Shown piece after piece: positions 22,143 through 54,252 of a stretch of 64,000 bases of DNA (positions within the stretch are counted from its first letter, which is position 1; every line of letters begins with the position of its first letter). The stretch covers positions 1,067-65,066 of the forward strand of contig JACOUE010000006.1 in assembly GCA_016178045.1 (NCBI GenBank), written 5' to 3'. This DNA is from Chloroflexota bacterium (GTDB taxonomy: Bacteria > Chloroflexota > Dehalococcoidia > SM23-28-2 > JACOUE01). The notes under the pieces were generated by a model. That model saw only the letters and a list, made by a program, of their open reading frames with translations, did not search any database and was not told where the DNA came from. The translations under genes and the position numbers were made by a program.

Positions 22143-22856
22143 ATGCAGGCCGTCATCTTGGCAGGGGGCAGGGGCACGCGCCTGAGACCGCTCACGGAGC
22201 GGCTGCCCAAGTGCCTGGTGCCGATCGCCGGCCGCCCGTTCCTGGAGTACCAGATCGATCTCCTGCGGGCCTGTGGAATACGCGACATCGTCCTCTGCGT
22301 GGGCCACCTGGGCGGCCAGGTGGTCGACCGCCTGGGCAACGGCGCGCGCTTCGGCGTGCGCCTCGATTATTCGTGGGACGGCGACCGTCTCCTGGGGACG
22401 GCGGGGGCGCTCAAGAACGCCGCTGCCCTCCTGGAGCCGGAGTTCTTCGTGACCTACGGCGACTCCTACCTGGCGCTCGACTACCGCGCTGTGCTGGATT
22501 ACTTCCGGCGGTCCGACAGGCTGGGCCTGATGGTGGTCTGCCGCGAGGGCGGCGGGCGGCTGCCCGGCAACGTGGCGGTCCGCGGCGGCTTGGTCTCCTC
22601 CTACGACAAGGAGACCCCGGCCCCGGGAATGACCCACGTCAACTTCGGCGTCACCCTCCTTCGCAGGCGGGCGCTGGCCCTGATCCCTCACGGCGCTCCT
22701 TACACGGAGGACCAGTTCTACAGCGACCTCATCGGCCGCGGCCAGCTCTTGGCCTACGAGACCGAGCGCTCCTTCTACGAGGTCGGCTCCTGGCAGGGGC
22801 TGGCCCAGTTCGAGAGGCTGATAAGCGTCAGCCCCCTGCTGCAGGCGGGAGCCTAA
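22143..22856 (+). CDS. hddC: Sugar-1-phosphate nucleotidyltransferase, D-glycero-alpha-D-manno-heptose-1-phosphate guanylyltransferase-like
   Basis: MQAVILAGGRGTRLRPLTERLPKCLVPIAGRPFLEY is the G-x-G-T-R-L NTP-transferase signature. About 237 aa, like HddC. Co-operonic with hddA, gmhA and gmhB homologues. Confidence 0.7.
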   Translation: MQAVILAGGRGTRLRPLTERLPKCLVPIAGRPFLEYQIDLLRACGIRDIVLCVGHLGGQVVDRLGNGARFGVRLDYSWDGDRLLGTAGALKNAAALLEPEFFVTYGDSYLALDYRAVLDYFRRSDRLGLMVVCREGGGRLPGNVAVRGGLVSSYDKETPAPGMTHVNFGVTLLRRRALALIPHGAPYTEDQFYSDLIGRGQLLAYETERSFYEVGSWQGLAQFERLISVSPLLQAGA

Positions 22857-22858
22857 CT

Positions 22859-23845
22859 GTGATCGTCAGCAGGACGCCGTTCCGCATCTCGTTCGGCGGC
22901 GGCGGCACCGACCTCCCCGCCTACTACAGCCGCTACGGCGGCTTCATCATCAGCGCCGCCCTCAATCGCTACGTCTACATCGCCCTCAACCGCCGCTTCG
23001 AGGACAGCATCCGGGTCAGCTACTCCCAGACCGAGATCGTCGAGGGCCCCGACCAGGTCCAACACCCCATCGTCCGGGAGGCCCTCCGCTTCCTGGACCT
23101 GGACGACGCCCTGGAGATAGTCTCCATCGCCGACCTGCCGGCCAACACCGGGCTGGGCAGCTCGTGCAGCTTCACCGTCGGCCTGCTCAACGCCCTCCAT
23201 GCCCTGAAGCGGGAGCACGTGTCGCTGGAGGAGCTGGCCGAGGAGGCGTGCCACCTGGAGATCGAGCGCCTGGGCGAGCCCATCGGCAAGCAGGACCAGT
23301 ACATCGCGGCGCTGGGCGGTATCACCTGCCTGGAGATCGACCGCGAGGGAGGAGTGCGGGCGGCGCCCGCCTCCGTCCCCAAGGAGGTGCTGGACGAACT
23401 GGAGGAGCGGCTCCTCCTCTTCTACACGGGACTCAAGCGCCGTGCCTCGGACGTGCTGGAGCCGCAGAGCCGCGCTGCCCGTGAAGATGAGCCGAAAGTC
23501 GTATCCGCCCTGCACGCCATCAAGGACATCGGCCACGAGGTCCAGGATTCGCTGGAGCGGGGCGAGCTGGACCGCTTCGGCAAGCTCATGGACCTCCACT
23601 GGCAGACGAAGAAGAACCTGTCCGACCGGGTGACCACCGACGAAGTCAACCGCTGGTACGACCTGGCCATGGCCGGTGGGGCCCTGGGCGGCAAGCTGAT
23701 GGGGGCCGGCGGTGGCGGCTTCTTCATGTTCTACTGCCCGAACGGCTCGAAGAACGAGGTGCGTAGAGCCCTCGCCGCCGAGGGCCTGAAGGAAGTCCGC
23801 TTCGGCATCGACTTCGAAGGGTCGAAGGTGCTGATCAACCTGTAG
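22859..23845 (+). CDS. hddA: GHMP sugar kinase, D-glycero-D-manno-heptose-7-phosphate kinase-like
   Basis: GTG at residue 217 of track ORF 22211..23845, 2 nt after the previous stop. Has RTPFRISFGGGGTDLPAYY, PANTGLGSSCSF (GHMP motif II) and GAGGGGFFMFY. Confidence 0.75.
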   Translation: MIVSRTPFRISFGGGGTDLPAYYSRYGGFIISAALNRYVYIALNRRFEDSIRVSYSQTEIVEGPDQVQHPIVREALRFLDLDDALEIVSIADLPANTGLGSSCSFTVGLLNALHALKREHVSLEELAEEACHLEIERLGEPIGKQDQYIAALGGITCLEIDREGGVRAAPASVPKEVLDELEERLLLFYTGLKRRASDVLEPQSRAAREDEPKVVSALHAIKDIGHEVQDSLERGELDRFGKLMDLHWQTKKNLSDRVTTDEVNRWYDLAMAGGALGGKLMGAGGGGFFMFYCPNGSKNEVRRALAAEGLKEVRFGIDFEGSKVLINL

Positions 23846-23848
23846 GTC

Positions 23849-24475
23849 GTGATGGTCGCCAGGGTCGAGACGCTTATCGACAGCTACTTGCAGACCCTCG
23901 CCGGGGTCGCCCTGGGCCTGCCGCGGGACGTGCTGGAGCGGGCGGCGGACCTGCTGTACGAGTGCTGGCGCCGGGAAGGGACGGTGTTCGTCATCGGCAA
24001 CGGCGGCTCCGCCTCCACCGCCACTCACCTGGCGTGCGACCTGGCGAAGGGGACGATAGTGCCCGGCCGCCGACGCCTGCGGGCGCTGTCGCTGGCGGAC
24101 AACGTTCCCCTCGTCAGCGCCTGGACCAACGACGGCGGCTTCGGGGGCCTGTTCGCCGAGCAACTGGAGCCGTGGATCAGCGCAGACGACGCGCTGGTGG
24201 TCCTTTCCGTCCACGGCGGCGCCGGCCACGCGGATGCCGGGCCGTGGTCCCAGAACCTGCTGCGGGCGGCGGCCCTCGCCCGGCAGCGCGGCGCCAGGGT
24301 GATCGGCCTCTCGGGCTTCGAGGGCGGACCCCTGGCCGGGCTCGCCGACGTGGCGGTCGTCGTGCCCGTGGAGGCCGAGCCGCTCGGCACTCCCATTGTA
24401 GAGTCGCTGCACGCGGCGATATGCCATCTCCTGTGCCTGGCCCTGCGCCAGCGCATCGCCGAGGCGGACGAGTAG
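23849..24475 (+). CDS. gmhA: SIS-domain phosphoheptose isomerase
   Basis: 208 aa. VFVIGNGGSASTATHLACDL and VLSVHGG...NLLRAAALARQRGARVIGLSG are typical GmhA/SIS motifs. Confidence 0.8.
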   Translation: MMVARVETLIDSYLQTLAGVALGLPRDVLERAADLLYECWRREGTVFVIGNGGSASTATHLACDLAKGTIVPGRRRLRALSLADNVPLVSAWTNDGGFGGLFAEQLEPWISADDALVVLSVHGGAGHADAGPWSQNLLRAAALARQRGARVIGLSGFEGGPLAGLADVAVVVPVEAEPLGTPIVESLHAAICHLLCLALRQRIAEADE

Positions 24476-24488
24476 GAAGGGAGGAGAG

Positions 24489-25184
24489 ATGGAACTGTTC
24501 CTGGACACGGCCGACCGGAACGAGATCCGCCGCTGGCTGGCGTACGGCCTGGTCGACGGCGTGACCACCAACCCCAGCATCATGCTCCGCGACGGCGCCC
24601 TGGACGCGGAACGGACGGCCCGAGAGATCGCCGCCCTCATCGCGCCCCGGCCGCTCAGCGTGGAGGTGACCACCAATGACCCCGACGAGATGGTCCGTCA
24701 AGCCCGCGTCATGGCCGCCTGGGCGGAGAACATTGTGGTCAAGATCCCCGTAATCAACGAGTACGGCGAGCCGTGCTACCGGGCCGTGCGGGCGCTGGAC
24801 GGGGAAGGCATCCGCGTGAACATGACGGCCTGCCTTTCCTTCGGCCAGGCCGCCCTTGCCGCTAAGGCCGCCGCCACCTACGTCAGCATTTTTGCGGGCC
24901 GTGTCGCCGACGAGGGCCACGACGCCCCCGCCCTGGTCCGGGAGGTGGTCGAGTGGCTCCGGCTCTGGGGCTATCCCGCCAAGCTCATCGTGGGGAGCGT
25001 TCGCGGCCCGATTGACATAAAGGAGGCGGCCCTGGCCGGCGCCCACGTCATAACCGTGCCCCCGCCGGTCCTGGACAGATTCGTGGAGCACCGCTATAGC
25101 CGCGAGACGGTGCGCGGGTTCAATGAGGACGCCCGCACGGCGCTGGCCCGCATGGAGCAGCTGAAGAAGGAGGTGGCGGCATGA
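24489..25184 (+). CDS. Short (type 3B) transaldolase / fructose-6-phosphate aldolase family
   Basis: 231 aa with GGGAGGAG SD. Has MELFLDTADRNEIRRW...DGVTTNPSI and the Schiff-base context VVKIPV. Confidence 0.85.
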   Translation: MELFLDTADRNEIRRWLAYGLVDGVTTNPSIMLRDGALDAERTAREIAALIAPRPLSVEVTTNDPDEMVRQARVMAAWAENIVVKIPVINEYGEPCYRAVRALDGEGIRVNMTACLSFGQAALAAKAAATYVSIFAGRVADEGHDAPALVREVVEWLRLWGYPAKLIVGSVRGPIDIKEAALAGAHVITVPPPVLDRFVEHRYSRETVRGFNEDARTALARMEQLKKEVAA

Positions 25185-25735
25185 GCTTGCTCGTGGCCCT
25201 CGACCGGGACGGCACGGTCATCGAGGAGCGGCCGTACCTGTCCGACCCGAGGCAGGTGGCGCTGCTGCCCCGTGCCGCCGAGGGGCTGCTGGCCCTGCGC
25301 GAGCAGGGGTTCAGGGTGGCCCTCGTTACCAACCAGTCGGGAGTGGGCAGGGGCTACTTTGACCTGCCCACCCTCGACCGTATCCACCGCCGGCTCTTCG
25401 ACCTGCTGGCCGGGGCCGGCGCCGCCGTGGACGGCGTCTACTTCTGCCCTCACGCGCCCGACGAGGGGTGCCGCTGCCGCAAGCCGGAGACCGGCCTGCT
25501 GGAGCGGGCCGCCTCCGACTTCGCCGCCGCGGACTGCTTCGTGGTGGGCGACAAGGAGTGCGACATCGGGATGGGGCTGCGCTCGGGAGCGACGACGGTG
25601 CTGGTGCGCACCGGCTACGGCCGCCAGACGGAGAAGGCGCGGAGGGTACGGCCGCACTACGTGGTCGACGACCTTCTGGCGGCGGCGGCGGTAATCAATC
25701 GCGCCGCTCTGTACCGGAAAGCGAGGGTAGCGTGA
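25181..25735 (+). CDS. gmhB: D-glycero-D-manno-heptose-1,7-bisphosphate phosphatase (HAD-IIIA)
   Basis: 184 aa. Has the DRDGT nucleophile motif, VTNQSGVGRGYF and the Zn-loop CPHAPDEGCRCRKP. ATGA overlap with the transaldolase gene. Confidence 0.8.
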   Translation: MSLLVALDRDGTVIEERPYLSDPRQVALLPRAAEGLLALREQGFRVALVTNQSGVGRGYFDLPTLDRIHRRLFDLLAGAGAAVDGVYFCPHAPDEGCRCRKPETGLLERAASDFAAADCFVVGDKECDIGMGLRSGATTVLVRTGYGRQTEKARRVRPHYVVDDLLAAAAVINRAALYRKARVA

Positions 25736-26403
25736 ACGCACTGGTCGGCTGGGAGGCAGAGGTCAGGCGCGCCCTCCGGGACGGCGCCGAAGTGAAGCTG
25801 CGCACGGCGGACGCCTGCGCGGCGGCGATTGCCAGGGCGGCAGAGGCCATTGCCGCCTGCCTTAGCATGGGTGGCAAGCTGCTGACCTGCGGGAACGGCG
25901 GCTCGGCTGCCGACGCCCAGCACATCGCCGCCGAGCTGGTGGGCCGTCTGAGCCCCAAGTCGTTGCGGCCGGCCCTTGCCGCCGTGGCCCTGACCACTGA
26001 TACGTCGGTGCTCACCGCCCTCGGCAACGATTTCGGGTTCGAGGTAGCGTTCCAGCGGCAGGTGGAGGCGCTGGGCCACCCCGGCGACGCCCTCCTCGCT
26101 ATCAGTACCAGCGGCCGCTCGGAGAACGTCCTGCGGGCGGTCTCGGCCGCCCGCGGCAAAGGCCTGGTCACCATCGCCCTGAGCGGGGGCGACGGCGGCG
26201 CCCTGACCGGGGCCGCCGACATCGCCGTCGTCGTCCCCAGCGATGACGCTCAGCGGGTGCAGGAGGCCCACATCGCTATCGGCCATATCGTCTGCTCCCT
26301 GGTGGAGCGCATCCTCTTCGACGAGGGAAAGGACCGGACATGGGATCTGGCGCGGGAAGCTGTCCCCGGGGCCGGCGTCATGGGCCGCTCCCCCGGACGG
26401 TGA
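25732..26403 (+). CDS. gmhA: Second SIS-domain phosphoheptose isomerase paralogue
   Basis: GTG at residue 89 of track ORF 25468..26403 (GTGA overlap). Has LLTCGNGGSAADAQHIAAEL and AISTSGRSENVLRAVSAARGKGLVTIALSG. Confidence 0.75.
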   Translation: MNALVGWEAEVRRALRDGAEVKLRTADACAAAIARAAEAIAACLSMGGKLLTCGNGGSAADAQHIAAELVGRLSPKSLRPALAAVALTTDTSVLTALGNDFGFEVAFQRQVEALGHPGDALLAISTSGRSENVLRAVSAARGKGLVTIALSGGDGGALTGAADIAVVVPSDDAQRVQEAHIAIGHIVCSLVERILFDEGKDRTWDLAREAVPGAGVMGRSPGR

Positions 26404-26404
26404 C

Positions 26405-28351
26405 GTGCAGAGTGGACGTCGGGCGCGCCGGGGCCGGACGAGCCGAGTCCGCCTGCTCGTCGCGGGTCTCGTCGCTGTGGCCATTGTCGCCTACGTGGCC
26501 ATTACCGGCACCCGTTTCCTGCTGGCCTACGGGGAGCTGAAGGAAGCGAAGGAGCTGATGCTTTCGGCCGAATCGACGCTGCGAAAGGACGGTCCGGACG
26601 CCTCGCCCGACACCCTGGACGGGGCGCAGGTCCGCCTCCTGGCCGCGCGGGCGAAGCTTGACTCCGCCCGCCGTCTGCTGGACGGCGACCCGCTGCTGCG
26701 GGCCGCCGAGCGGCTTCCCGCGCTGGGGCCGCAGTTGTCGGCCGTGCGGTCGTTCATCGACATCGGCCGCGAAGGGGCGGACGTCGGCCTGGCCGGTATC
26801 GAAGCGCTCCGAAGCTACGATGCGGTCCGGGCAGACAAGAGACCGCCTCTGGGCGAGCGGGTTGTGGCGTTCCTGGAAGCCGTCCGGCCGGAGATGGCCT
26901 CGGCGGAGGCAAGCCTGGCGCTGATACAGGAGGAACGCTTGGCGATGGAGGGGGACTGGCTGCTCCCTCCCCTCGCCGGGCTGCTCGAAGAGGTGGACGG
27001 GCGCCTCCCGCGGCTCCAGCGGTCGCTGGAGAGGTACCGCGACGGGCAACGGGCGGCGCCCGGACTCCTCGGCTTCCGGGGGGGCCGCCGCTACCTGGTG
27101 CTGGGCCTGGACAACACGGAGCTCATGCCCGGCGGCGGGCTCATCGGCTCCTACGGCGTGATCACCCTCCAGAGGGGCCGCCTGCGCGACCGCACCTTCG
27201 GCGAGGTTGAGGACGTGATCGACCGCTGGCAGGAGCGGAGCGGCGGCGAGTACATCGAGCCGCCGGGCCCCCTCAAGCGGTACCTGCTGCGCGACTGGAC
27301 CTGGAACTTCGGCATTGCCGACTGGTCGCCCGACTTCCCGACCTCCGCCCGGCAGGCGCTCTTCTTCTACGAGCGCTCGGGGGCGGAGCCCGTCGATGGC
27401 GTCATCGCCCTCGACTTCGCCACCCTGGAAGGACTCCTCGAAGTGCTGGGCCCGGTGCGCATCGAGCGGTACGGCGTGACCGTGGACGCCGAGAACGTGA
27501 CGGAGGAGGTCCTGGCCCGCATCGGCCGGCCGCTGCGTCCCGGGCAGGGCGACCACGCCTTCGCCCGCGCCGTCGCCCGCCGCGTGATCGACGAGGCGAT
27601 GGACGCCGACGGGCAGGAGTGGCAGCCGCTGCTGCGGAGGCTGGAGCGTCTGGCCGAGGAGAAGCACCTCTTCGTCTACTCCGGCGACGCGGGCATCGAA
27701 CGGTCCCTGGGCCGGCTGGGCTGGGCGGGCGAGGTGAGGGAGGAGCCGGGCGACTACCTGATGGTGGTGAACGCCAGCGTCCACAGCACCAAGCTCAACC
27801 TGGCCCTGCGCGAGAGGTTCGATGTGCGGGTGCGGCTGGACGCCGCGGGCAACGCCCATCACGGTGTCACCCTCCGCTACGAGAATCGCCTCGACGAGTG
27901 GGCCGCCGGCCGCGATCCCCAGTTCGTCTCCGACCTGATGCTTTCCGGTTTCTACGGCGGATACGTGCGCGTGCTCACGCCGAAAGAATCACGCTTACGG
28001 GAAGTGCGGCTGAACGGAGAGGCCGCCGGGGTGGAGGAGGTGACGCAGGAGGCGGGCAGGCTCTCCTTCGGGCGCTACGTGCCGCTTCCCAGGGACGCCC
28101 GAGCCAGCCTCGAGTTCGCCTACCTGAGCCCCGGCGTCGTCGAGGCTTTGGGGGGCGTCCGCACGTACCGGCTGCTCCTCCAGAAGCAGCCGGGGACGGG
28201 GGCGATCCCCCTGAGGCTGACCGTCGAGCTGCCAGCGGGAGCTTCGGTGACGAGCGTCACGCTCGGCGGTCGTGAGCTGCCGCCCGGCCGGCTGAGGATA
28301 GAGACGGACCTTTCGAGGGACAGGGAGCTGGTCGTGGAGTACGAGCCTTAG
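26405..28351 (+). CDS. DUF4012-like membrane-anchored extracytoplasmic protein
   Basis: GTG at residue 55 of track ORF 26243..28351. Arg-rich N-terminus, one TM helix (LLVAGLVAVAIVAYVAI), then a roughly 600-aa domain containing YLVLGLDNTELMPGGGLIGSYGVI, which I recognise as the DUF4012 core. Confidence 0.6.
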   Translation: MQSGRRARRGRTSRVRLLVAGLVAVAIVAYVAITGTRFLLAYGELKEAKELMLSAESTLRKDGPDASPDTLDGAQVRLLAARAKLDSARRLLDGDPLLRAAERLPALGPQLSAVRSFIDIGREGADVGLAGIEALRSYDAVRADKRPPLGERVVAFLEAVRPEMASAEASLALIQEERLAMEGDWLLPPLAGLLEEVDGRLPRLQRSLERYRDGQRAAPGLLGFRGGRRYLVLGLDNTELMPGGGLIGSYGVITLQRGRLRDRTFGEVEDVIDRWQERSGGEYIEPPGPLKRYLLRDWTWNFGIADWSPDFPTSARQALFFYERSGAEPVDGVIALDFATLEGLLEVLGPVRIERYGVTVDAENVTEEVLARIGRPLRPGQGDHAFARAVARRVIDEAMDADGQEWQPLLRRLERLAEEKHLFVYSGDAGIERSLGRLGWAGEVREEPGDYLMVVNASVHSTKLNLALRERFDVRVRLDAAGNAHHGVTLRYENRLDEWAAGRDPQFVSDLMLSGFYGGYVRVLTPKESRLREVRLNGEAAGVEEVTQEAGRLSFGRYVPLPRDARASLEFAYLSPGVVEALGGVRTYRLLLQKQPGTGAIPLRLTVELPAGASVTSVTLGGRELPPGRLRIETDLSRDRELVVEYEP

Positions 28352-28361
28352 GAGGTCGAGC

Positions 28362-29164
28362 ATGTCGTTCTGGCGAGGAAAGCGAGTAGTGGTCACCGGC
28401 GGGGCCGGCTTCATCGGCTCCCACGTGGTCGAGGCGCTCCGCCGCAAGGACTGCGCCGACGTCTTCGTGGTGCGCAGCCGCGACTACGACCTCACCCGCG
28501 AGGAGAACGTCGTCCGCCTGCTCGACGAGACGGAGCCCGACATCGTCTTCCACCTGGCGGGACTGGTGGGCGGGATAACGGCGAACAAGGAGCGTCCCGC
28601 CGAGTTCTTCTACCAGAACCTGACCATGGGAACCTTCATGCTCCGCAGTCGCTCGCCTACTACGAGCAGTACGGCTTCGTCTCCAGCATCTGCGTGCTGG
28701 CCAACGTCTACGGGCCGAACCACACCTTCGACCTCCACTACTCGCCGGTGGTGCCGGCCCTCATCCGCAAGAGCGTTGAGGCGGTGGAGAACAACAGCGA
28801 CACCATCACCGTCTGGGGCAGCGGCCGCCCGACCCGTGACTTCATCTACGTGGGCGATGTCGCCCGCGGCCTCCTCCTGGCGGCGGAGAAGTACGAACGT
28901 CCGGCCCTGGTCAACATCTCCTCCGGCAAGGAGATAACCATCCGCGAGCTGGCGGAGCTGCTGGCCGAGCTGACCGGCTTCCACGGCCGCATCGTCTGGG
29001 ACTCCGGCCACCCCGACGGAGCTCTCCGTCACTGCCTCGACCCCAGCAAGGCGAAGCGGGAGCTCGGCTTCGAGGTCGAAGTGGGCCTGCGCGAAGGGCT
29101 GGAGCGCACCATCGCTTGGTACAAGGCCAACCGCGAGCAGGCCCGGGTAAGGATCACGGTGTGA
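28362..29164 (+). pseudogene. GDP-L-fucose-synthase-like epimerase/reductase with an internal deletion of about 50 codons plus a frameshift
   Basis: N-part (track ORF 28362..28937) is good through ...FFYQNLTMGTFMLRS, then degenerates. C-part (frame of ORF 28694..29164) resumes at ..SLAYYEQYGFVSSICVLANVYGPN. The intact paralogue at 36631 shows that [14 protein letters not shown]...YGVAKRVLA (catalytic Ser and YxxxK) is missing. Confidence 0.7.
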
Positions 29165-29166
29165 GC

Positions 29167-30387: not shown

Positions 30388-30406
30388 GAAGGAGGTCGCG
30401 CAGAGC

Positions 30407-31345: not shown

Positions 31346-31354
31346 GAGCAGCCT

Positions 31355-41982: not shown

Positions 41983-41984
41983 GG

Positions 41985-47034: not shown

Positions 47035-48247
47035 CCTGCCGTCTCCGTTCGAGGGTGGAGTACTTCAACTCTTCCATTTCCTCCGGCTCCTGAAGAAGGA
47101 GCACGGCCACCACATAGACCTCATCTCCCTACTCCAGCAGCCCGCACCCCTCGGCCCCTCGCCGGAAGAGCTGTGGTTCTGCGACACGGTGCAGACGATC
47201 AAGGTCCCCCGCAGCGGCAGCGCCGCGAAGTGGCTGTACGGTCTGCGGGCGCTGGTATCGCCGCGGCATCTTTTCGGCGGGAGCCACACGTTCTTGAACC
47301 CGGGCTACTCTCCCGTGATGCAGCGCACGGTAGAGCAAACGGTCGCCTCCAATCACCTTGACGTCATCCTCGTTCACAACCTGTATACGGCCTTCTACGC
47401 CTGGGATGCGGGACTGCCGGTGGTTTCGCACATCGACTGTCCATTCCCTGAACTGTTCCGGAGATGGATGCAAAGTACGAGCTGGCTGAAGCTGCCGGTC
47501 AAGCTGCTGGCCCTCGTCATGTACTGGGCCAACCTGCGAGAGGCCCGCAGAGTCTACGACAAGGGATTCTACGCCCTGGTCACGGCGGGGTCCCAGGACC
47601 TGCCCATCTGGCGGCGCTACGTTCCGGACATGAACATCGCGGTGATACCAAACGGCGTCGACACGGAGTACTTCGCCCCCGGAGGAGCCGAAAGCCGCGA
47701 GCCGGCTCTGGTCTTCACCGGTACGATGAGCTCCACCGCCAATGTCAGCGCGGTGCTCGCCTTCTACCGCCGGGTCTTCCCGCGTATCCGGGCCCAGATA
47801 TCCGGCGTCAGGTTCAACGTCGTGGGGCAAGGCCCGCCAGAAGAAATCAGGGAGCTCGGGCGAGACCCGGCAGTGCTGGTCACGGGTTCCGTCCCCGACG
47901 TGAGGCCCTATCTGCAAGAGGGATGGGTGGCCGTCGTCCCCACGACGGTAGGCATGGGGTGCTCCAACAAGATCCTGGAGGCGATGGCGATGGGGAAGGC
48001 CGTTGTGACGACCCAGGCCCAGGGCGCGGGGCTGTCGATCGCACGCGGCCGCGAGGCCGCGATCGCCGAGAACGATGAGGAGTTCGCGGAACAGGTGGTC
48101 GCGCTGCTGCGGGACAGCGCTCGACGCGCAACGATGGGCCGGGCGGCAAGAGCACTCGTCGAAAAGCACTATACGTGGGTCGCGGCCACCCAGCGGCTCA
48201 ACGCCCTGCTGGAGGAGGCGGTAAGGGTTAATGGAACTGGCCAATAA
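47009..48247 (+). CDS. GT4-family glycosyltransferase
   Basis: GTG 5 codons into track ORF 46994 (VNILALSPSLP). The C-domain reads GMGCSNKILEAMAMGKAVVTT. Confidence 0.75.
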   Translation: MNILALSPSLPSPFEGGVLQLFHFLRLLKKEHGHHIDLISLLQQPAPLGPSPEELWFCDTVQTIKVPRSGSAAKWLYGLRALVSPRHLFGGSHTFLNPGYSPVMQRTVEQTVASNHLDVILVHNLYTAFYAWDAGLPVVSHIDCPFPELFRRWMQSTSWLKLPVKLLALVMYWANLREARRVYDKGFYALVTAGSQDLPIWRRYVPDMNIAVIPNGVDTEYFAPGGAESREPALVFTGTMSSTANVSAVLAFYRRVFPRIRAQISGVRFNVVGQGPPEEIRELGRDPAVLVTGSVPDVRPYLQEGWVAVVPTTVGMGCSNKILEAMAMGKAVVTTQAQGAGLSIARGREAAIAENDEEFAEQVVALLRDSARRATMGRAARALVEKHYTWVAATQRLNALLEEAVRVNGTGQ

Positions 48248-50456
48248 CGTCTGGGCGCGATCCGGTGGGCGGATACTGACCGCGGCCCCGGCGATAGGTG
48301 CGGGCGCTGCCGCCCTGCCCATGGTGGTGATGACGGATGTGCCTGGCCTCAGGGAGGTAGTCGCCTTCATTGCGCTCTTCCTGATCCCCGGGGCACTGAT
48401 CTTGTACCTGCTGCGTCTCCGTGACCTCGATCCATGGGAGTTGCTCGCTTACGCGTGTGGACTCAGCCTTGTCGTTGTGATGGCGCTGGGGCTGGCCTTG
48501 AACGGGCTCCGCGGCCTGGGCGTGGAGCGACCCCTGTCCTCGATGCCGGTGGCCGTAGCGGTAGGCGCGGCCACGGCTTGCCTGGCCGCTGTTGCCGCGC
48601 TGTGGCAGCGGGAGCTCCCCTCCGTGGGGGTACGCCCGGGCGAGCTTCTGAAGCCGTACACTACGTTGTGCCTGTTGCCGCCGGCTGTCGTAATTCTGGG
48701 GACCCAGCTGGCCAATGCCCGGCAGGATAATACCTTCCTGCTGGCCGCCATCGCCCTGCTGGCGCTGTTTCCTCTGGCGGCTTTTCTGCCCCGCCTCTTG
48801 CCGGAAAAGGCGTACCCCCTGGCGGTGGTGGCCATTTCCGTCTCGCTCCTTCTCCACCGGTCGCTCATCTCCCCCCGTCTGACAGGATTCGACATCCACG
48901 CGGAGTACTTCTTCGGAAGCCTGGTCTTGAAAGACGGATACTGGGACCAGTCGATCCCCAACGTCTACAACTCGATGCTCAGCCTCACCATCGTTCCGCC
49001 CATGTTCTCGGCCGTAGCCGATGTGGACCTCCTGTGGGTGTACAAGGCCGTGTATCCGCTGCTCTTCTCGCTCATGCCGCTCTCCCTCTTCCTGCTCTGG
49101 CGGAGGGCGGTGGGATCGCGGGCGGCGTTCCTGGCCGCCTGCTTCCTGATGTTCACGCAGCCCTTCTACCAGCTGATGCCGGGGATGGCCCGGATGGAGA
49201 TGGGGCTGCTGTTCGTCGCCCTTGTGCTGCTCACCCTGTCGGCGGGCTCGGGCCCGCAGGCCGTCGCCCTGCGGATCATCTTTGCCGGCGGGATGATCGT
49301 GTCCCACTACTCGGTGGCGTACTTCCTGATCCCCGCACTGGCCGCCGCCCCGGGCCTGAGCTGGCTCTACCGGCTGGCCCGCACACGCAGCTCCGGCCAG
49401 AACGCCGCTGCCCTAACCCCTGCCTTCCTCTCGCTGTTCCTCGCCTTTACGTTCTTCTGGTACGTCTACGTCTCCGCTGAGTCCGCGCCGTTCGACGACG
49501 CCGTGCGTACGCTGTCGGACCTCGGCCGCAAGCTCGGCCGCGACTTCTTCAGCCCCCAGGCCTCGCAGGGCCTCTACCTGGCGACGCAGTCGTTGACGCC
49601 CCTGCGAGACGTCGCCCGGTACCTGCACTTCGGGTTCCAGGGGCTTACGGTTATCGGCGTGGTCTGGGCCCTCCTCCGGTGGCGGCGGGGCCCCTTCCCC
49701 CCAGAGCTGACGGCGCTGGCCGTGCCCGCCCTGGCGGTGAACGCGGCGACCGTCGTCGTCCCCTACTTCGCCGCCGGCACCTTCGGCATGGAGCGGCTGC
49801 TGATGGGCACTCTCATATTCCTGGCGCCCTTCGCCGTGATGGGCGGCCTGGCCCTGTTCAGCGGCCTGGCCGTCCTGGGCCGGCTGGCGCTCGCCCTCGT
49901 CGGGATGCGGAACGTGCGCCTCCAGCCCGTCGCAGGCGTGGTTGCTGCGCTCCTCCTGGCGGCCGGGCTGGGCGCGTACCTGCTCTTCAATTCGGGCTTC
50001 GTCTACCAGGTCGCGGGCGAGCGGCCGAACGCGGTACCCCTTTCCCGCGGATGGATGGCGGCCAGCGCCAACGCCGACGAAAAGCTGTCCTTCTTCGCGA
50101 TCTACCCGCCGCTGGAGGACTTCGCCGCCGGGGAGTGGCTGGGCGGGCAGCGGGCGCCGGGAATCCCCGTTTACGCCGACCTCGACGGTTGGGCCTACGT
50201 CCTCAGGGAGTGGATACCACAGCGGGAGATGTCGTCGCTGGACCCCGACCGTCTGCCGCAGAAGTCGGGTTACGTCTTCCTTCGCTACCTCAACACTAAA
50301 CACGGCATCATGGCGCCGCCGCCTTATGAGGGCTGGGAGGGCGTCGAGGGACACGGCTGGTGGCTTCTCCGCGACATGACGCCTTGGACGGAGGAAGCGA
50401 ACCTCATCTACGCCAACGGTACGGCTAAAGTGTACCTCTCGCGGCCGGGCGAGTGA
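48231..50456 (+). CDS. Large polytopic membrane protein with a C-terminal soluble domain (DUF2206-like/GT-C-like); candidate glycan polymerase or transferase
   Basis: 741 aa. About 14 or more hydrophobic segments fill the first 600 aa, followed by a roughly 130-aa hydrophilic tail. The first predicted external loop carries the acidic motif RDLDPWE. Confidence 0.55.
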   Translation: MELANNVWARSGGRILTAAPAIGAGAAALPMVVMTDVPGLREVVAFIALFLIPGALILYLLRLRDLDPWELLAYACGLSLVVVMALGLALNGLRGLGVERPLSSMPVAVAVGAATACLAAVAALWQRELPSVGVRPGELLKPYTTLCLLPPAVVILGTQLANARQDNTFLLAAIALLALFPLAAFLPRLLPEKAYPLAVVAISVSLLLHRSLISPRLTGFDIHAEYFFGSLVLKDGYWDQSIPNVYNSMLSLTIVPPMFSAVADVDLLWVYKAVYPLLFSLMPLSLFLLWRRAVGSRAAFLAACFLMFTQPFYQLMPGMARMEMGLLFVALVLLTLSAGSGPQAVALRIIFAGGMIVSHYSVAYFLIPALAAAPGLSWLYRLARTRSSGQNAAALTPAFLSLFLAFTFFWYVYVSAESAPFDDAVRTLSDLGRKLGRDFFSPQASQGLYLATQSLTPLRDVARYLHFGFQGLTVIGVVWALLRWRRGPFPPELTALAVPALAVNAATVVVPYFAAGTFGMERLLMGTLIFLAPFAVMGGLALFSGLAVLGRLALALVGMRNVRLQPVAGVVAALLLAAGLGAYLLFNSGFVYQVAGERPNAVPLSRGWMAASANADEKLSFFAIYPPLEDFAAGEWLGGQRAPGIPVYADLDGWAYVLREWIPQREMSSLDPDRLPQKSGYVFLRYLNTKHGIMAPPPYEGWEGVEGHGWWLLRDMTPWTEEANLIYANGTAKVYLSRPGE

Positions 50457-51289
50457 TGCAGGTGTTCGAGGCGCTCCACGGCTCTTCCTGTCCGGTGGCC
50501 ATCGTCACCGGGGCGTCCAGCGGCATCGGCCGGGAGACGGCGCTCCTGCTGGGCCGGCGGGGATACTGCGTCGGGCTGCTGGCGCGGCGGCTGGAGCGGC
50601 TGGAGCAGGTGGCCGAGGAGGTCATTGCCGCCGGCGGCGCCGCCGCTCCCCTCCCGACCGACGTGGCCAGCCGCGTCCAGGTCAACCGGGCGGTGGAGGC
50701 TATCGTCAGGCGCTGGGGGCGCGTCGACCTGCTGGTGAACAACGCCGGGTTCGGCGTCTACGGCCTGGTGTCGGAATGCGAGCCGGCCGACTTCGAGCGG
50801 CAGGTGCAGGTCAACTACCTGGGCGCCGTCTACTGCACCCTGGCGGCGCTACCCACCATGCTCCAGCAGGAGTCGGGCTGCATCATCAACGTCTCGTCGA
50901 TATCCGGGAAGGTGCCGTCGCCGCTCTCGGCCGGGTACTGCGCCAGCAAGTCGGCTCTGGGGGCGTTCTCGGCTGCTCTGCGGATGGAGCTGCGGGGCCG
51001 CGGCGTCTCCGTGGTGACCGTGTGTCCCGGCTACAGCGAGGGGGAGTTCGACGAGGCGATGGTCAAGCGCCGGCCCCTGGAGCGGCGCAACCTGCTGCGA
51101 CCGGTCGCGGCGGCTTCCGTGGCGCGCACGATCGTCCGGGCGGCCGAGCGGCCGCGGCGGGAGCTGGTCACGCCGTCCGCCCTCAGGCTCCTGGCCCTCG
51201 GCTATCACGTTATGCCGGGGCTCATCGACTGGTGGCAGTCGAAGTTCCGCAACGGCCCCGGCGAGGCGCGGGGAGACAGCGATGGCTGA
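50453..51289 (+). CDS. Short-chain dehydrogenase/reductase
   Basis: 278 aa. Has VTGASSGIGRE, NNAG, a catalytic Ser and YCASK (YxxxK), all intact. Confidence 0.8.
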   Translation: MMQVFEALHGSSCPVAIVTGASSGIGRETALLLGRRGYCVGLLARRLERLEQVAEEVIAAGGAAAPLPTDVASRVQVNRAVEAIVRRWGRVDLLVNNAGFGVYGLVSECEPADFERQVQVNYLGAVYCTLAALPTMLQQESGCIINVSSISGKVPSPLSAGYCASKSALGAFSAALRMELRGRGVSVVTVCPGYSEGEFDEAMVKRRPLERRNLLRPVAAASVARTIVRAAERPRRELVTPSALRLLALGYHVMPGLIDWWQSKFRNGPGEARGDSDG

Positions 51290-52475
51290 GGGGCTGCTCG
51301 TAGTCGTCCCCAACTTCGAGTTCGCGCCCGGGAAGTGGATGGGGCCCAACTTCCTGCTGTCGGTCCTCCGGAGTCCCTCTTTTCGTGATTTGGGCGTCGA
51401 GGTGCACGTGGTCTCCCGCGGCGACAGGGACGGCTACTGCGATCAGGGGCGCCTCAAGCTCCACAAGGTCGCCTCAGCGTCACGTTCGGCGGAGCCGTTC
51501 GACCGGTACGGGAATTGGTGGAGCGGGCAGGGGCGGAAGCCTATGCTCCCCGAGGCGTGTGCCCGCCTCCGCGATGCCGCGAGGGTGGCGGGGCGGGTGT
51601 GGGGCCTCCTCCCCCGCGTGAGGTCCGTCCTCTGGTGGACGGAGCCGCACCCGCCGTTCGGGAACCTGGTGCGGGCCGCCGCCGGGCGCCGGGGGATAAG
51701 GAGCGTGTTCACCCTCGCCAACTACCAGCCCTCCTTCCCGATGCACGATGCGCTGCTGCGGGGCGCCCTCGGCGGCTTCGACCGGGTCGTCGCGCCCTGC
51801 CGCGCCCTGGAACAGCGCCTGGCCGCCATCGGCGTGCTACCCGGGAAGCTGACTACCGTCCCCCTGGGCGTGGACCTGGAGCGGTGGCAGCCCGTCTGCC
51901 CGGAGGAGAAGACCCGGCTGAGGAGGTCGTACGGGGTAAGCGAGGACGCGGTGGTGGTGCTGTGGTTCGGCCCCATCATCCCGCCGGCCCGACCCGAAGA
52001 CGTGCACTTCCTCCTGGAGGCCCTCCCCCGCGTCCGGCGACAGGTGCCACGGGCGAGCTTCGTGTTCGCCTTCAAGTACGGCGTGCCCCATGACCTCGTC
52101 CAGCGCCAGCCCTGGGTAAGGGCCTTCGACCGCTACGGGGACGTGGGCGACCTGTACCGCCTGGCGGACGTTGCGGCGGTGCCCTTCACCGCCGGGGGCC
52201 CCTGGATAACGACGCCCCTGTCCATGCTGGAGGCGATGGCCTGCGCCCTGCCGGTCGTGACCCTGCGAAGACCCTGCCTTGAGGAGGTGGTGGGCGACGG
52301 CGAAGGCGGCCTGCTGGTGGACCGGCGGGACGACTTCGCGGAGGCGGTGGGCGACCTCTGCTCCGACAGAGCCCGCCTGGAGGAGCTGTCGGGTTCGGCG
52401 CGGCGGCGGGCCGAGCGGGAGTTCGACGTCGCCGACGCGGCGCGCCGCTACGCCCGGCTGCTGCTGGAGGGCTGA
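51282..52475 (+). CDS. GT-B glycosyltransferase
   Basis: 397 aa. The C-domain reads PLSMLEAMACALPVVTLRRPCLEEVVGDGEGGLLV. Confidence 0.7.
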   Translation: MAEGLLVVVPNFEFAPGKWMGPNFLLSVLRSPSFRDLGVEVHVVSRGDRDGYCDQGRLKLHKVASASRSAEPFDRYGNWWSGQGRKPMLPEACARLRDAARVAGRVWGLLPRVRSVLWWTEPHPPFGNLVRAAAGRRGIRSVFTLANYQPSFPMHDALLRGALGGFDRVVAPCRALEQRLAAIGVLPGKLTTVPLGVDLERWQPVCPEEKTRLRRSYGVSEDAVVVLWFGPIIPPARPEDVHFLLEALPRVRRQVPRASFVFAFKYGVPHDLVQRQPWVRAFDRYGDVGDLYRLADVAAVPFTAGGPWITTPLSMLEAMACALPVVTLRRPCLEEVVGDGEGGLLVDRRDDFAEAVGDLCSDRARLEELSGSARRRAEREFDVADAARRYARLLLEG

Positions 52476-52477
52476 GG

Positions 52478-53548
52478 GTGGCAGGGGATTCGCTGAAGCG
52501 CTACGTGCTCGTGCCGGGGCTCCTGGAGGTGGTGAGCAACGCGGGCAGCATCCCCGGCTTCCTCACACCGCTGTACTCGTCACCGGCTGAGGATCCGGCC
52601 GAAGTCAGCCTCACCTTCAAGGTCGCGCCGCAAGCGACGGAGCCGACAGCCGGCGGAGTCGCGTTCGGGTTCATCCGCGGCGAGCCAGATGGCGACGACG
52701 TCGCGTACGACTCGCGGCTGCTGGGGCCGTGGGGCGCCCGCCTTCGCCTGCGGGGCCTGCAAAACGGGCCCGAGCTGTCGGTAAGCGGGGCGTACGCGGC
52801 GCTGGCGCGGGTCCGGGTCGGAAACCTGCTGCCGCCGGGAGAGCACCTGAGCGACGTGGCCCAAGTCAAGCTCCTCCAGGGCGGGCGGACGCTGGTGCAC
52901 GCGGCGTCCGCGGCCATCGACGGCAAGGGCGTGCTGTTGGCGGGCCCGGGCGGCAGCGGCAAGACGGCGACCGTCATGGGCCTGGTCGATCGGGGCGCGG
53001 CCTTTCTGGCGGAGGACGTTTCCATCACCGACGGCGAGCGCCTCTGGGGCCTTCCCCGGACGAGGAGCTGCCTCTGGGACGCGGACCCGCGCGGACTGCC
53101 GAGAGCGAAGCAGGGGCAGCGGCTGGCGGCGCGGCTTTTCCGCGGCGCGCTCGCCCTGTCTCCGGCTGCGGGCCTCATCCTGCCGCCGCCCTCGGCCGGG
53201 TCCCTGCCGCGGGACCGCGTGGAAACGCAGGCGCCTCTCCGCTTCGTCTTCGTCCTGGGCCGGGGGCCCGGCAAGTTCGAGCCGCTACCGGCCCGAGAGG
53301 CGCTCCGCAGGCTGCTGCTGATCAACCGGTACGAGTTCTCCTGGTACGAGAACCCGCTGCTGGTGGGCTACGCCGCCCTCAACCGCTGGCTGGACCTCGG
53401 CGGGTTGATGAGGCAGGAGGAGAAAGTGCTGGCCGAAGCGACCCGAAACGCCGAATGCTTCCTCTGCCAGGCGCCCGAGCCGGCCGAAATGGTCGAGCCG
53501 ATACTGAGCGTCGTGAAGGACGAGAGGGCATGGCCCGCCGCCCGCTGA
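52478..53548 (+). CDS. HPr-kinase-C-terminal-like P-loop protein
   Basis: 356 aa. GVLLAGPGGSGKTATVMGLVDRGAAFLAEDVSI parallels the HprK pattern GVLIxGxSGxGKSxxALxLIxRGHxLVADD. The N-terminal roughly 150 aa are unassigned. Confidence 0.5.
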   Translation: MAGDSLKRYVLVPGLLEVVSNAGSIPGFLTPLYSSPAEDPAEVSLTFKVAPQATEPTAGGVAFGFIRGEPDGDDVAYDSRLLGPWGARLRLRGLQNGPELSVSGAYAALARVRVGNLLPPGEHLSDVAQVKLLQGGRTLVHAASAAIDGKGVLLAGPGGSGKTATVMGLVDRGAAFLAEDVSITDGERLWGLPRTRSCLWDADPRGLPRAKQGQRLAARLFRGALALSPAAGLILPPPSAGSLPRDRVETQAPLRFVFVLGRGPGKFEPLPAREALRRLLLINRYEFSWYENPLLVGYAALNRWLDLGGLMRQEEKVLAEATRNAECFLCQAPEPAEMVEPILSVVKDERAWPAAR

Positions 53549-54252
53549 CCGTCGCTTTCCTGGGCATCCACGGCTCCGGCAAGACCACCCAGGCCCGCCT
53601 CCTGTGCGGGGCCCTCCGGGAGCGGGGGATCACGGCGCGATACGTGCACCACCTGGCGGCAGGGAGCCGGGTCGGGCGCTGGACGGAACGGCACGTTGCG
53701 CGGCCGATCCTGGCCGCTTCCTCCCGCCTGCTCGGCGGGCGGCCCGGAGACAGGCCACGCCCCGCCGCGCCTGCCGGGCGCGCCCTGCGGCGGGCGCTGG
53801 CGACGCTGACGGCAGCGCGCGGCGTCGTCCGCTTCCAACACGTCGACGCTGGGGCGGCGGTCGTCGCCTTCGACCGGCACGCGTACGACAGCATGGCGCG
53901 GGCGCGCTGGCTGTACGGCGTGCCGGCCCTCGGCGAGCGGTGGCTGCTGCGCCGGACGCCGATGCCGGGTCTGATCGTTTTCCTGGACGCGGAGCCGCAG
54001 GACGCGTGCCGGAGGCACAAGGGACAGGAGTGGTCTGCCTCCCAGCTGGAGCGGCAGGCGGCCGCCTACCGCGAGTTTATGCGACTGCTCCGGACCGAGA
54101 ATCGGGGCGTGCCGGTGTACACCGTGCCCGCTCATCTACCCGTCGAGCAGGTCCACGCGGAGGTCCTCGCGGCCGTGATGCGTCTCCTGGGCCCGGCGGG
54201 CCGGAGCCGGCCAGCGGCGGCGACCCCTACGCCCGGCGGAACCGCTCGCTGA
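53530..54252 (+). CDS. Thymidylate-kinase-like P-loop nucleotide/nucleoside kinase family protein
   Basis: ATG at residue 268 of track ORF 52729..54252. MARRPLTVAFLGIHGSGKTTQARLL resembles the dTMP-kinase P-loop (GxDGxGKTT). Has a later FDRH and an LIVFLD stretch. It is the last gene of the plus-strand operon. Confidence 0.5.
   Translation: MARRPLTVAFLGIHGSGKTTQARLLCGALRERGITARYVHHLAAGSRVGRWTERHVARPILAASSRLLGGRPGDRPRPAAPAGRALRRALATLTAARGVVRFQHVDAGAAVVAFDRHAYDSMARARWLYGVPALGERWLLRRTPMPGLIVFLDAEPQDACRRHKGQEWSASQLERQAAAYREFMRLLRTENRGVPVYTVPAHLPVEQVHAEVLAAVMRLLGPAGRSRPAAATPTPGGTAR

Follow-up and report, generated by a model that had tools for sequence, protein, structure and literature searches.

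The window analysed here is a 64,000-nt stretch of an uncultured Chloroflexota metagenome-assembled genome, probably of the class Dehalococcoidia, as which its nearest relatives are labelled (MAG; GenBank assembly GCA_016178045.1, contig JACOUE010000006.1, positions 1,067 to 65,066), in which a preliminary description had placed a one-strand, tightly coupled glycan operon of ∼30 genes at 22143–54252. Its G+C content is ∼69%, and raw lists of open reading frames (ORFs) are therefore full of spurious frames; frames were picked by the G+C content of the third codon position (GC3) and start codons were chosen beside the preceding stop codon. Called in this way, 22143–54252 holds 31 ORFs (g1–g31; Table 1), all on the plus strand, with overlaps at 20 of the 30 junctions (12 of the 4-nt ATGA/GTGA/TTGA type), a widest gap of 19 nt and 63 non-coding nt out of 32,110. 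The tightly coupled run was thus borne out, as was the number of ORFs, although two of them, g8 and g17, are dead genes with internal deletions of 157 and 266 nt, respectively; the seeming gaps of 138–178 nt at 28937–29116 and 37602–37741 are their out-of-frame remnants. No credible gene was found on the minus strand inside the operon, the sole high-GC3 antisense ORF (37374–37898) being without a Pfam match. Such a co-directional, mostly overlapping run of 31 genes is far beyond chance, and its order is repeated in independent contigs. What did not hold was the proposed end of the system at 54252: a convergent module of five to six minus-strand genes (54227–59741) is kept with the operon at 62–78% identity in two related loci from other contigs (L001 and L002; relatives are numbered in this way throughout) and belongs to the same system.

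Table 1. Features of the locus, with positions in the window and the matches on which each assignment is based
Feature	Position	Strand	Assignment	Evidence
promoter	21718–21746	+	sigma-70-type promoter	TTGACA, 17-nt spacer, TATTAT, extended -10 TG; consensus match 11/12
stem-loop	22040–22103	+	long stem-loop in 5′ leader	∼40 nt 5′ of g1 start codon; conserved
g1	22143–22856	+	sugar-1-phosphate nucleotidyltransferase (HddC/ManC/MurU-like)	PF00483 E 1.5e-20; NCBIfam, all below cut-off: MurU 110 bits, Man-1-P guanylyltransferase 100, HddC 67 (cut-off 300)
g2	22859–23845	+	GHMP kinase, HddA-like (heptose-7-phosphate kinase)	PF00288, PF08544; NF049969 (HddA) E 9.5e-49, 167 bits vs cut-off 600
g3	23849–24475	+	divergent SIS-domain isomerase, GmhA-like	PF13580; TIGR00441 81 bits, below cut-off
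g4	24489–25184	+	transaldolase/fructose-6-phosphate aldolase family	PF00923 E 1.7e-46; TIGR00875 170 bits
g5	25181–25735	+	HAD-IIIA phosphatase, GmhB-like	NF006506 GmhB E 8.6e-45; 152 bits vs cut-off 178
g6	25732–26403	+	sedoheptulose-7-phosphate isomerase, GmhA-like, canonical copy	NF010546 E 5.6e-63; TIGR00441 192 bits vs 209
g7	26405–28351	+	DUF4012 membrane-anchored ectoprotein	PF13196
g8	28362–29164	+	pseudogene of GDP-fucose-synthase-like SDR	157-nt internal deletion, frameshift
g9	29167–30387	+	NDP-sugar 3-C-methyltransferase, TylC3/TcaB9 family	PF08421, PF08484; PDB 4rv9 E 3e-112; TcaB9 E 1e-90
g10	30407–31345	+	extended-SDR NDP-sugar epimerase, dehydratase or reductase	PF01370 E 2e-34
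g11	31355–32371	+	extended-SDR NDP-sugar epimerase, dehydratase or reductase	PF01370 E 7e-46
g12	32361–33407	+	second HddA-like GHMP kinase	NF049969 E 2.2e-66; 225 bits vs cut-off 600
g13	33404–34582	+	PLP-dependent sugar aminotransferase (DegT/LegC/PseC-like)	PF01041 E 3.6e-117; TIGR04181 283 bits
g14	34579–35832	+	GT4	PF13692, PF00534
g15	35816–36634	+	class-I methyltransferase	PF08241
g16	36631–37602	+	GDP-L-fucose-synthase-like epimerase/reductase, extended SDR	NF047922 295 bits, E 6e-88; cut-off 500
g17	37599–38643	+	pseudogene of ColD/RfbH-like PLP-dependent C3-dehydratase	266-nt internal deletion, frameshift
g18	38643–39395	+	class-I methyltransferase	Pfam
g19	39392–40603	+	GT4	Pfam; 76–77% identical in L001, L002
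g20	40600–41982	+	Wzx-type (MOP family) flippase	PF01943 E 1.1e-28; PF13440 E 8e-16; ∼12 hydrophobic segments
g21	41985–42893	+	FkbM methyltransferase	Pfam; variable block
g22	42890–44167	+	GT4	Pfam; variable block
g23	44145–44915	+	class-I methyltransferase	Pfam; variable block
g24	44912–45793	+	FkbM methyltransferase	Pfam; variable block
g25	45790–47034	+	GT4	Pfam
g26	∼46994–48247	+	GT4	Pfam; overlaps g27
g27	48231–50456	+	DUF2206, 741-aa polytopic GT-C-fold predicted glycosyltransferase	PF09971
g28	50453–51289	+	classical SDR, adh_short	Pfam; conserved core
g29	51282–52475	+	GT4	Pfam; conserved core
g30	52478–53548	+	HPr-kinase-like P-loop protein	weak PF07475
g31	53530–54252	+	thymidylate-kinase-like (dTMP-kinase-like) P-loop protein	weak PF02223
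m1	54227–54919	-	soluble GT2, dolichyl/polyprenyl-phosphate sugar synthase homologue (AglJ/DPM1/ArnC/GtrB class)	AglJ 139 bits vs cut-off 325
m2	54929–55879	-	GalE/4,6-dehydratase-like SDR	Pfam/NCBIfam
m3	55882–56874	-	AglG-like GT2	NF041394 AglG 189 bits, E 1e-55; cut-off 440
m4	56878–57888	-	GFO/IDH/MocA oxidoreductase	Pfam/NCBIfam
SDR pseudogene	57896–58539	-	adh_short SDR pseudogene	175-nt internal deletion, frameshift
m5	58536–59741	-	UDP-glucose-6-dehydrogenase (UGDH) homologue, N-terminally truncated	PF03721, PF00984, PF03720 from profile position 34

Gene families were assigned by Pfam, NCBIfam and PDB-sequence searches. All four enzyme families of the nucleotide-heptose pathway are clustered in the operon (22143–26403 and 32361–33407), namely GmhA-like isomerases (g6 and g3), HddA-like kinases (g2 and g12, 33% identical to each other), a GmhB-like phosphatase (g5) and a nucleotidyltransferase (g1). 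The divergent isomerase g3 belongs to the conserved head of the locus, with 63–70% identity in L006 and L008–L010. Because the scores of the heptose enzymes fall short of the curated equivalog cut-offs, we assign the pathway by family and infer its nucleotide (GDP) and anomer only. Genes for the tailoring of nucleotide sugars are interspersed and follow downstream: the 3-C-methyltransferase g9, the extended short-chain dehydrogenases/reductases (SDRs) g10, g11 and g16, of which g10 and g11 reached no NCBIfam equivalog, and the pyridoxal-phosphate (PLP)-dependent aminotransferase g13.

The module counts of the preliminary description agreed with the Pfam results throughout. Besides the heptose module, the operon encodes six glycosyltransferases of the GT-B type (GT4), six methyltransferases (one C-methyltransferase, three Methyltransf_11-like and two FkbM), a Wzx flippase, a DUF4012 protein, a 741-aa polytopic protein, an adh_short SDR and two P-loop kinase-like proteins. 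The GT4 enzymes g14, g19 and g22 are mutually 38–40% identical, and the methyltransferases form the pairs g15/g18 (47%) and g21/g24 (46%), a pattern that suggests duplicated modules of sugar addition and methylation. In the conserved core around DUF2206, g28 and g29 are 61–71% identical in L001 and L002. Both P-loop proteins, g30 and g31, show Walker A motifs, and their PDB sequence matches were weak only; the g30 orthologues in L001 and L002 bear the precomputed Pfam label PF27840 ScmC, and a literature search for this name returned only unrelated acronyms.

The absence of the usual initiation, polymerisation and export machinery, likewise noted in the preliminary description, was also seen in our searches. 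Pfam scans of the window's called genes and larger ORFs returned no WbaP- or WecA-type protein (PF02397, PF00953), no Wzy-type protein, no Wzz/GNVR protein and no ABC exporter, and tblastn found neither a WbaP-type transferase (Dehalococcoidia Bac_transf query, E up to 1e-3) nor Wzz in the 64 kb. No STT3 Pfam match was obtained in the window. The only polytopic protein besides the flippase g20 is g27, and nothing of the Wzy/WaaL type is present in the window.

This protein, g27, is a member of DUF2206. The DUF2206 profile had no sequence match among solved structures, including the solved GT-C enzymes, and no NCBIfam model matched g27 or a haloarchaeal DUF2206 protein. When an AlphaFold2 (AF2) model made with 19 homologues (pLDDT 83, pTM 0.88) was searched with Foldseek, the matches at E<0.2 were GT-C enzymes only (AftA, archaeal AglB, human and yeast STT3, PglB, ArnT, PMT, DPY19, AftD and ALG9; probability 0.95–1.00), the best being the mycobacterial arabinosyltransferase AftA. 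On the strength of this model we confidently predict a GT-C fold, in line with the 'GT-C-like' label that g27 had been given at the outset. Its likeness to AglB, PglB and STT3 is at the level of the fold only (E 2e-4 to 1e-3), and AftA and ArnT are equally alike. Conserved polar residues of the family include D221 and E225 (motif GFDIHAEYF), K272, R321, H359 and R522. An exhaustive HMMER search (E up to 1e-3) collected 6,030 clusters at 50% identity from bacteria and archaea; the sampled members are unnamed metagenomic proteins, and no mention of DUF2206 was found in the literature searched.

We inspected DUF2206 neighbourhoods in 80 further metagenomic loci (∼30% identity) and in L003–L005. 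A GT4 of the g25/g26 type stands immediately upstream on the same strand, usually overlapping, in 33 of the 55 metagenomic loci with room for it, and a second polytopic, Wzx-type neighbour is present in 23 of the 48 loci of at least 7 kb. Among 18 polytopic neighbours that a simple search had not identified, Pfam identified 15 flippases (PF01943/PF13440) and one CAAX protease, leaving two without a match; none of the 18 belonged to the Wzy_C/WaaL or MraY/WecA families. Bac_transf and Wzz were each found in 0 of the 80 loci. In haloarchaea, too, DUF2206 lies beside GT2, GT4 and a Wzx-like gene. Wzx and GT4 thus regularly accompany DUF2206 in loci without the customary polymerase, ligase and initiator. 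This co-occurrence argues against a cis-encoded phosphoglycosyl transferase across the family, although a housekeeping copy could lie elsewhere in the genomes.

The other family with a likely role outside the membrane is DUF4012, represented by g7, which has one transmembrane helix (residues 15–33). Its AF2 model (pLDDT 90.6) starts with this membrane helix, continues with a long helical bundle and an alpha/beta domain and ends in beta-sandwiches. Foldseek returned partial beta-sandwich matches only (the N-terminal domain of M1 aminopeptidase, oligosaccharyltransferase accessory subunits and lpg2210; TM-scores 0.13–0.19), which we did not use to assign a function. More than 557 relatives occur in species genomes of Chloroflexota and Patescibacteria, and the literature searched contained passing mentions only. 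Since DUF4012 accompanies Wzx-type, ABC-type and WbaP/Wzz-type alleles alike, it probably has a general extracytoplasmic role, for example in attachment, length control or scaffolding. Of 80 related loci, 25 have a Wzz-tyrosine-kinase gene next to DUF4012. In many Chloroflexota genomes (L007, L012–L016, L019–L021, L034, L036) DUF4012 stands directly beside a Wzz/GNVR-tyrosine kinase, and a subset of these also has a sortase and a protein-tyrosine phosphatase, which hints that it may work with machinery for chain-length control or cell-wall anchoring.

Two other kinds of gene cluster were considered and discarded. A secondary-metabolite (glycoside antibiotic) cluster, prompted by the TcaB9-type C-methyltransferase, was rejected on account of the Wzx flippase, the GT-C protein, the eight glycosyltransferases, the membrane ectoprotein and the lack of aglycone genes. 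A mycobacterial-type cytoplasmic methylated polysaccharide was rejected on account of the flippase and the outward-facing enzymes.

In the convergent module, the gene nearest to the operon, m1, has AglJ, followed by dolichyl-phosphate hexose transferase, as its best named NCBIfam matches, and in the PDB it matches the Pyrococcus Dol-P-Man synthase (5mlz, E 8e-15, residues 10–209), ArnC (E 6e-7) and GtrB (E 1e-4). It has no transmembrane segment; some members of this class of polyprenyl-phosphate sugar synthases are soluble. The protein is 72–75% identical in L001 and L002 and 56% identical in L017, where the heptose and DUF4012 genes share their strand with homologues of m1, m2, m4 and the adh_short SDR. 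Judged by family, m1 is the local candidate for an initiator or for a synthase of a lipid-linked donor. An instance in which a cytoplasmic GT2 step is physically tied to the GT-C protein was seen in another locus (L004, 7970–11362), where P0020 is a 1,130-aa fusion of an N-terminal GT2 with DUF2206; other GT2 enzymes, a pyruvyl transferase and a Wzx-like gene accompany it. The GT2 domain of P0020 is neither specifically m1-like nor m3-like, and the fusion therefore favours neither of the proposed roles of m1.

We consider it somewhat more probable than the contrary that 22143–54252 is the main operon of a Wzx-dependent cell-surface glycan locus in which the DUF2206 GT-C enzyme carries out a step after flipping. 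In such a pathway, g4 would supply sedoheptulose-7-phosphate for conversion to NDP-heptose, and g10, g11, g16, g13 and g9 would tailor nucleotide sugars to deoxy, amino and branched forms, with the convergent module supplying a uronic acid or related sugar. The six GT4 enzymes, together with the AglG-like GT2, would build an oligosaccharide on a membrane lipid carrier at the cytoplasmic face, where five candidate O-methyltransferases, interleaved with their GT4 partners, would methylate it. After flipping of the lipid-linked glycan by g20, g27 would perform the extracytoplasmic step otherwise done by Wzy, WaaL or an oligosaccharyltransferase, that is, polymerisation or transfer to the final acceptor, probably with the membrane-anchored g7 acting alongside. 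Initiation is the weakest step of the scheme. It would not be by a cis-encoded WbaP or WecA, and the best local candidate is m1, which might charge polyprenyl phosphate or, instead, make a lipid-linked donor for g27. The options are an unlinked WbaP/WecA, an AglJ-like charging of polyprenyl monophosphate, of the type found in the Haloferax Agl pathway (PMC3871713), and a GT4 acting on a glycerolipid as in lipomannan synthesis. The product is most likely a methylated, heptose-containing sugar chain on the cell surface. Of the heavily methylated, modified-heptose polymer predicted in the preliminary description, the methylated heptose glycan remains plausible; its being a polymer is one of three forms, with a protein-borne oligosaccharide and a lipoglycan, between which the sequence does not decide.

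A bolder version can be put forward only tentatively, and we doubt it more than we believe it: DUF2206 may be an unrecognised GT-C post-flip enzyme (polymerase, ligase or oligosaccharyltransferase) that defines a distinct Wzx-dependent class without Wzy/WaaL or WbaP/WecA, whose glycan would be initiated by either an AglJ/DPM1-like GT2 or a GT4, in effect an archaeal-style logic in Chloroflexota.

The principal competing explanation, which we regard as rather unlikely, is an ordinary Wzx/Wzy (or ligase) pathway whose initiator and polymerase are encoded elsewhere in the genome, DUF2206 merely decorating the finished glycan outside the cell with one sugar taken from a polyprenyl-phosphate sugar made by m1. 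Decoration of this kind is the logic of ArnC/ArnT, RgtE/RgtA-D and GtrB/GtrC. The membership of m1 in the polyprenyl-phosphate sugar synthase class suits it, and the set of UGDH, GalE-like SDR, GT2 and GT-C mirrors the Arn/Rgt arrangement; type-B relatives have Bac_transf and Wzz beside DUF4012 and heptose genes, and unlinked genes are possible beyond the contig of only 65.8 kb. The archaeal trio AglD/AglR/AglS offers a precedent (PMC3871713). The DUF2206 neighbourhoods fit it less well: no Wzy, WecA or WbaP homologue was seen beside DUF2206 in the 80 loci, in which Wzx and GT4 are the regular neighbours, and only 7 of the 18 loci of at least 15 kb contain an AglJ/DPM1-like GT2, so that the pairing of GT2 with GT-C is not obligatory. 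The tight coupling of GT4 to DUF2206 also fits core assembly better than an accessory role.

The position of AftA as the best structural match of g27 raises the further idea of a lipoglycan of the lipomannan/lipoarabinomannan type, in which a PimA/MshA-like GT4 would start on a glycerolipid, other GT4 enzymes extend, Wzx flip and the GT-C enzyme elongate outside with polyprenyl-phosphate sugars made by m1. We think this quite improbable. It would accommodate the resemblance of m1 to Dol-P-Man/Ppm1-type synthases, the lack of a cis phosphoglycosyl transferase in any DUF2206 locus examined, and the weak best matches of g25 and g29 to MshA, N-acetylglucosaminyl-phosphatidylglycerol synthase and LTA glycolipid-anchor families; these GT4 matches, however, fall far short of the family cut-offs, Wzx flippases usually go with polyprenyl-diphosphate-linked units, and in its set of tailoring enzymes the locus resembles those for O-antigens or S-layer glycans. 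We know of no information on lipoglycans in Dehalococcoidia.

Four genes of the locus are damaged, and each has an intact orthologue in related contigs. In g8, profile positions 1–118 of 240 alone are in frame, and its halves match residues 1–94 and 134–316 of the L001 GMER protein in different frames; the deletion was mapped against the intact 317-aa orthologue of L006. The dehydratase gene g17 has lost residues 47–134 of the intact 450-aa L001 orthologue. The fragments of the adh_short pseudogene cover profile positions 1–88 and 152–229 (mapped against the L002 orthologue), and m5 lacks the N-terminal ∼42 residues that bear the NAD-binding motif in orthologues of 446 and 448 amino acids, with a stop codon directly upstream. 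The adjoining 216-aa ORF at 59729–60379 (minus strand) has no Pfam match and is weakly similar (34% over 85 aa) to the C-terminal part of the DUF1616/LysM gene found before UGDH in L001; it may owe its truncation to the deletion that removed the UGDH N-terminus. The deletions could be real pseudogenisation, population variants or assembly errors. That the whole locus is a decaying, non-functional copy in this MAG, or that assembly artefacts account for the deletions, so that the parts list does not represent a working pathway, would explain four frameshifting or truncating deletions in genes that are intact elsewhere; we nevertheless judge it improbable, as the other 32 genes (29 on the plus strand and three in the convergent module) are full-length, most of them with a strong GC3 bias, and the translational-coupling junctions are intact. 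Moreover, for all but one of the four damaged genes the locus contains an intact paralogue (g16 and g11 for g8, g13 for g17, and g28 for the adh_short SDR), which points to a loss of redundant or serotype-specific steps rather than to general decay.

The locus architecture recurs at 45–83% amino acid identity, end to end on ENA scaffold_618 (which carries both L006 and L001) and partially on L002. The order on scaffold_618 is a divergent RDD gene with the leader, the heptose module and DUF4012, an intact g8 orthologue, the C-methyltransferase, SDRs, the second kinase and the aminotransferase; then the GT4/methyltransferase block, GMD-like and GMER-like genes and an intact ColD-like gene; and finally GT4, Wzx, two GT4 genes, DUF2206, SDR, GT4, the two P-loop genes and the convergent module. 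The head, that is, the heptose genes with DUF4012, lies beside the same RDD gene in L006 and L008; L009 has the same head order and L010 the same head genes in a rearranged order, and the genes downstream of the head differ in L008, L009 and L010. In the L090 allele, the same HAD-phosphatase and DUF4012 genes, at the contig edge, are followed by a Wzm/Wzt ABC transporter (ABC2_membrane and ABC_tran), and in more distant Dehalococcoidia and Chloroflexia, DUF4012 and heptose genes occur with a WbaP-type transferase, a Wzz-tyrosine kinase, a phosphatase and a sortase. The part that varies between relatives (g20–g26) has the lowest G+C content in the window (0.63–0.66), and the block g21–g24 is absent from L001. 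Going by these comparisons, the locus is one allele of a variable family of surface-glycan loci in Dehalococcoidia-like Chloroflexota, with conserved flanks as in O-antigen and capsule loci. The earlier statement that the combination was not recognisable as any characterised locus therefore stands insofar as the synteny comparison found no locus with an assigned glycan structure; the combination is not unique, being an allele of a family whose other members have WbaP and Wzz or an ABC transporter.

Several of these observations weigh against our preferred interpretation of a Wzx-dependent pathway with a post-flip DUF2206 enzyme. In more distant relatives where DUF4012 and heptose genes occur with Wzx and methyltransferases, a WbaP-type transferase and Wzz are encoded in cis, and the initiator missing here could lie outside the contig. 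For g27, the Foldseek TM-scores are modest (mostly 0.3–0.48), and we did not find the acidic catalytic residue that GT-C enzymes typically carry in their first external loop, D221 and E225 lying further in. The absence of Wzy near DUF2206 is based on Pfam and phmmer detection in short contigs, and for the named heptose and Agl enzymes no NCBIfam match reaches the curated cut-off of its family. With four genes bearing deletions, this copy of the locus may be partly non-functional or the assembly imperfect. Furthermore, all relatives are MAGs or metagenomic contigs from uncultured organisms.

A leader of 488 nt (21655–22142) precedes g1. It contains the only strong sigma-70-type promoter within 21000–40999, both hexamers of which are conserved in L006 and L008, and inside the operon there was no excess of terminator-like sites over shuffled sequence. 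Because of this strong, conserved promoter and the lack of such an excess, all 31 ORFs are most likely driven from 21718 as one long, translationally coupled message. The stem-loop further downstream in the leader is present in all four sequences available for comparison (the window, L006, L008 and L009); RNAalifold gave 19 pairs, four of them with compensatory double changes, and no U-run follows the stem. A search of the window and the leader against Rfam found no known RNA, its miRNA matches being chance hairpin hits. The stem-loop may be an antitermination, processivity or stability element of the 32-kb transcript. The motif GCGGGATTATAGCAC at 21658–21672 is near-invariant in the window, L006 and L008, with one to two positions differing in L006; it adjoins the start of the divergent RDD-family gene (21148–21651, minus strand) and could be the promoter of that gene or a shared operator. 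At the other end, the 3′ ends of the convergent genes g31 and m1 share 26 nt (54227–54252; 32 nt in L001), with no terminator between the operons, an arrangement that would imply transcriptional collision or antisense overlap.

Beyond the convergent module, 60571–62660 (minus strand) encodes an FAD protein resembling geranylgeranyl reductase and a CAAX protease of the Rce1 type; in L119, too, a DUF2206 gene has an Rce1-like protease as its neighbour (15528–16376). Any connection with lipid-carrier saturation or with the processing of an acceptor is speculative. Upstream of the operon, 316–19737 holds an apparent cluster for the degradation of steroid or branched-lipid side chains (a ChsH2-type OB-fold protein, a MaoC-like dehydratase, paired acyl-CoA dehydrogenases, SCP-x-type thiolases, an acyl-CoA ligase, a P450 and a nitronate-monooxygenase-like enzyme), which is unusual for a Dehalococcoidia-like MAG.

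Soils, sediments and aquifers are rich in Chloroflexota, especially in Dehalococcoidia, and to our knowledge next to nothing is known of their envelope glycans. The locus family may provide a genetic blueprint for a methylated surface glycan containing heptose and branched sugars, and it flags two widespread families without an assigned function, DUF2206 (∼6,000 clusters) and DUF4012 (hundreds of species), as likely extracytoplasmic machinery. If DUF2206 does replace Wzy, WaaL or an oligosaccharyltransferase, it would be a new class of terminal enzyme in Wzx-dependent assembly and a link between bacterial and archaeal pathways; if the missing genes lie elsewhere in the genome, the locus would be another uncharacterised serotype-type locus. 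The theme of a glycan cluster is familiar, and what the gene content suggests is an uncharacterised variant of the Wzx-dependent pathway, with a testable role for two large families.

Among known systems, the Wzx/Wzy loci for O-antigen, capsule and exopolysaccharide share with it the long one-strand cluster, the nucleotide-sugar genes, the many GT4 enzymes and Wzx, as well as a conserved edge, a variable centre of lower G+C content and allelic replacement between relatives; they differ in that no WbaP/WecA initiator, Wzy or Wzz is found in the 64 kb here, where the GT-C-fold DUF2206 and the DUF4012 ectoprotein stand in their place. The S-layer glycan (slg) clusters of Gram-positive bacteria such as Aneurinibacillus and Geobacillus, from monoderm-type hosts, are likewise long one-strand clusters with a GDP-heptose pathway and methyltransferases. 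They use a WbaP-type initiator (WsaP), an ABC transporter and a Wzy_C-type O-oligosaccharyltransferase, whereas all three are absent from the window. With the systems that pair a polyprenyl-phosphate sugar with a decorating GT-C enzyme (ArnC/ArnT, RgtE/RgtA-D, GtrB/GtrC, and Ppm1 or DPA with AftA/Emb), the locus has in common a soluble DPM1-like m1 that is conserved with the GT-C-fold g27, and UGDH and the GalE-like SDR could supply a uronic-acid donor. Unlike in those systems, there is no small GtrA- or ArnE/F-type flippase here, DUF2206 has no detectable sequence similarity to solved GT-C enzymes, and it is coupled to GT4 and Wzx much more often than to GT2.

For the sugar precursors, the nearest counterpart is the GmhA/HddA/GmhB/HddC heptose pathway, since homologues of all four enzymes occur in the locus together with SDR-type dehydratases, epimerases and reductases and a ColD-like PLP-dependent C3-dehydratase gene (g17), which is intact in L001 beside GMD-like and GMER-like genes. 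Here, however, the matches are below the equivalog cut-offs, the isomerase and the kinase each have two paralogues, a dedicated transaldolase and a TcaB9-type 3-C-methyltransferase are present and the C3-dehydratase is dead in the window; the host is a member of the Chloroflexota, and Wzx takes the place of a KpsMT-type exporter. The closest biochemical precedents for the tailoring of heptose, including a PLP-dependent C3-dehydratase, come from work on the C. jejuni capsule (PMC10680097, PMC10440746). Lastly, the Agl N-glycosylation pathway of Haloferax volcanii (PMC3871713) differs in that STT3/AglB has no counterpart here, the host is bacterial, the glycosyltransferases are mostly GT4 and the scores are far below the equivalog cut-offs. 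Even so, it provides the best named matches of m1 (AglJ), m3 (AglG) and m5 (AglM), both systems have a Wzx-like flippase (cf. AglR) and a methyltransferase (cf. AglP), and in the locus, too, a GT2 could start the glycan on polyprenyl monophosphate.

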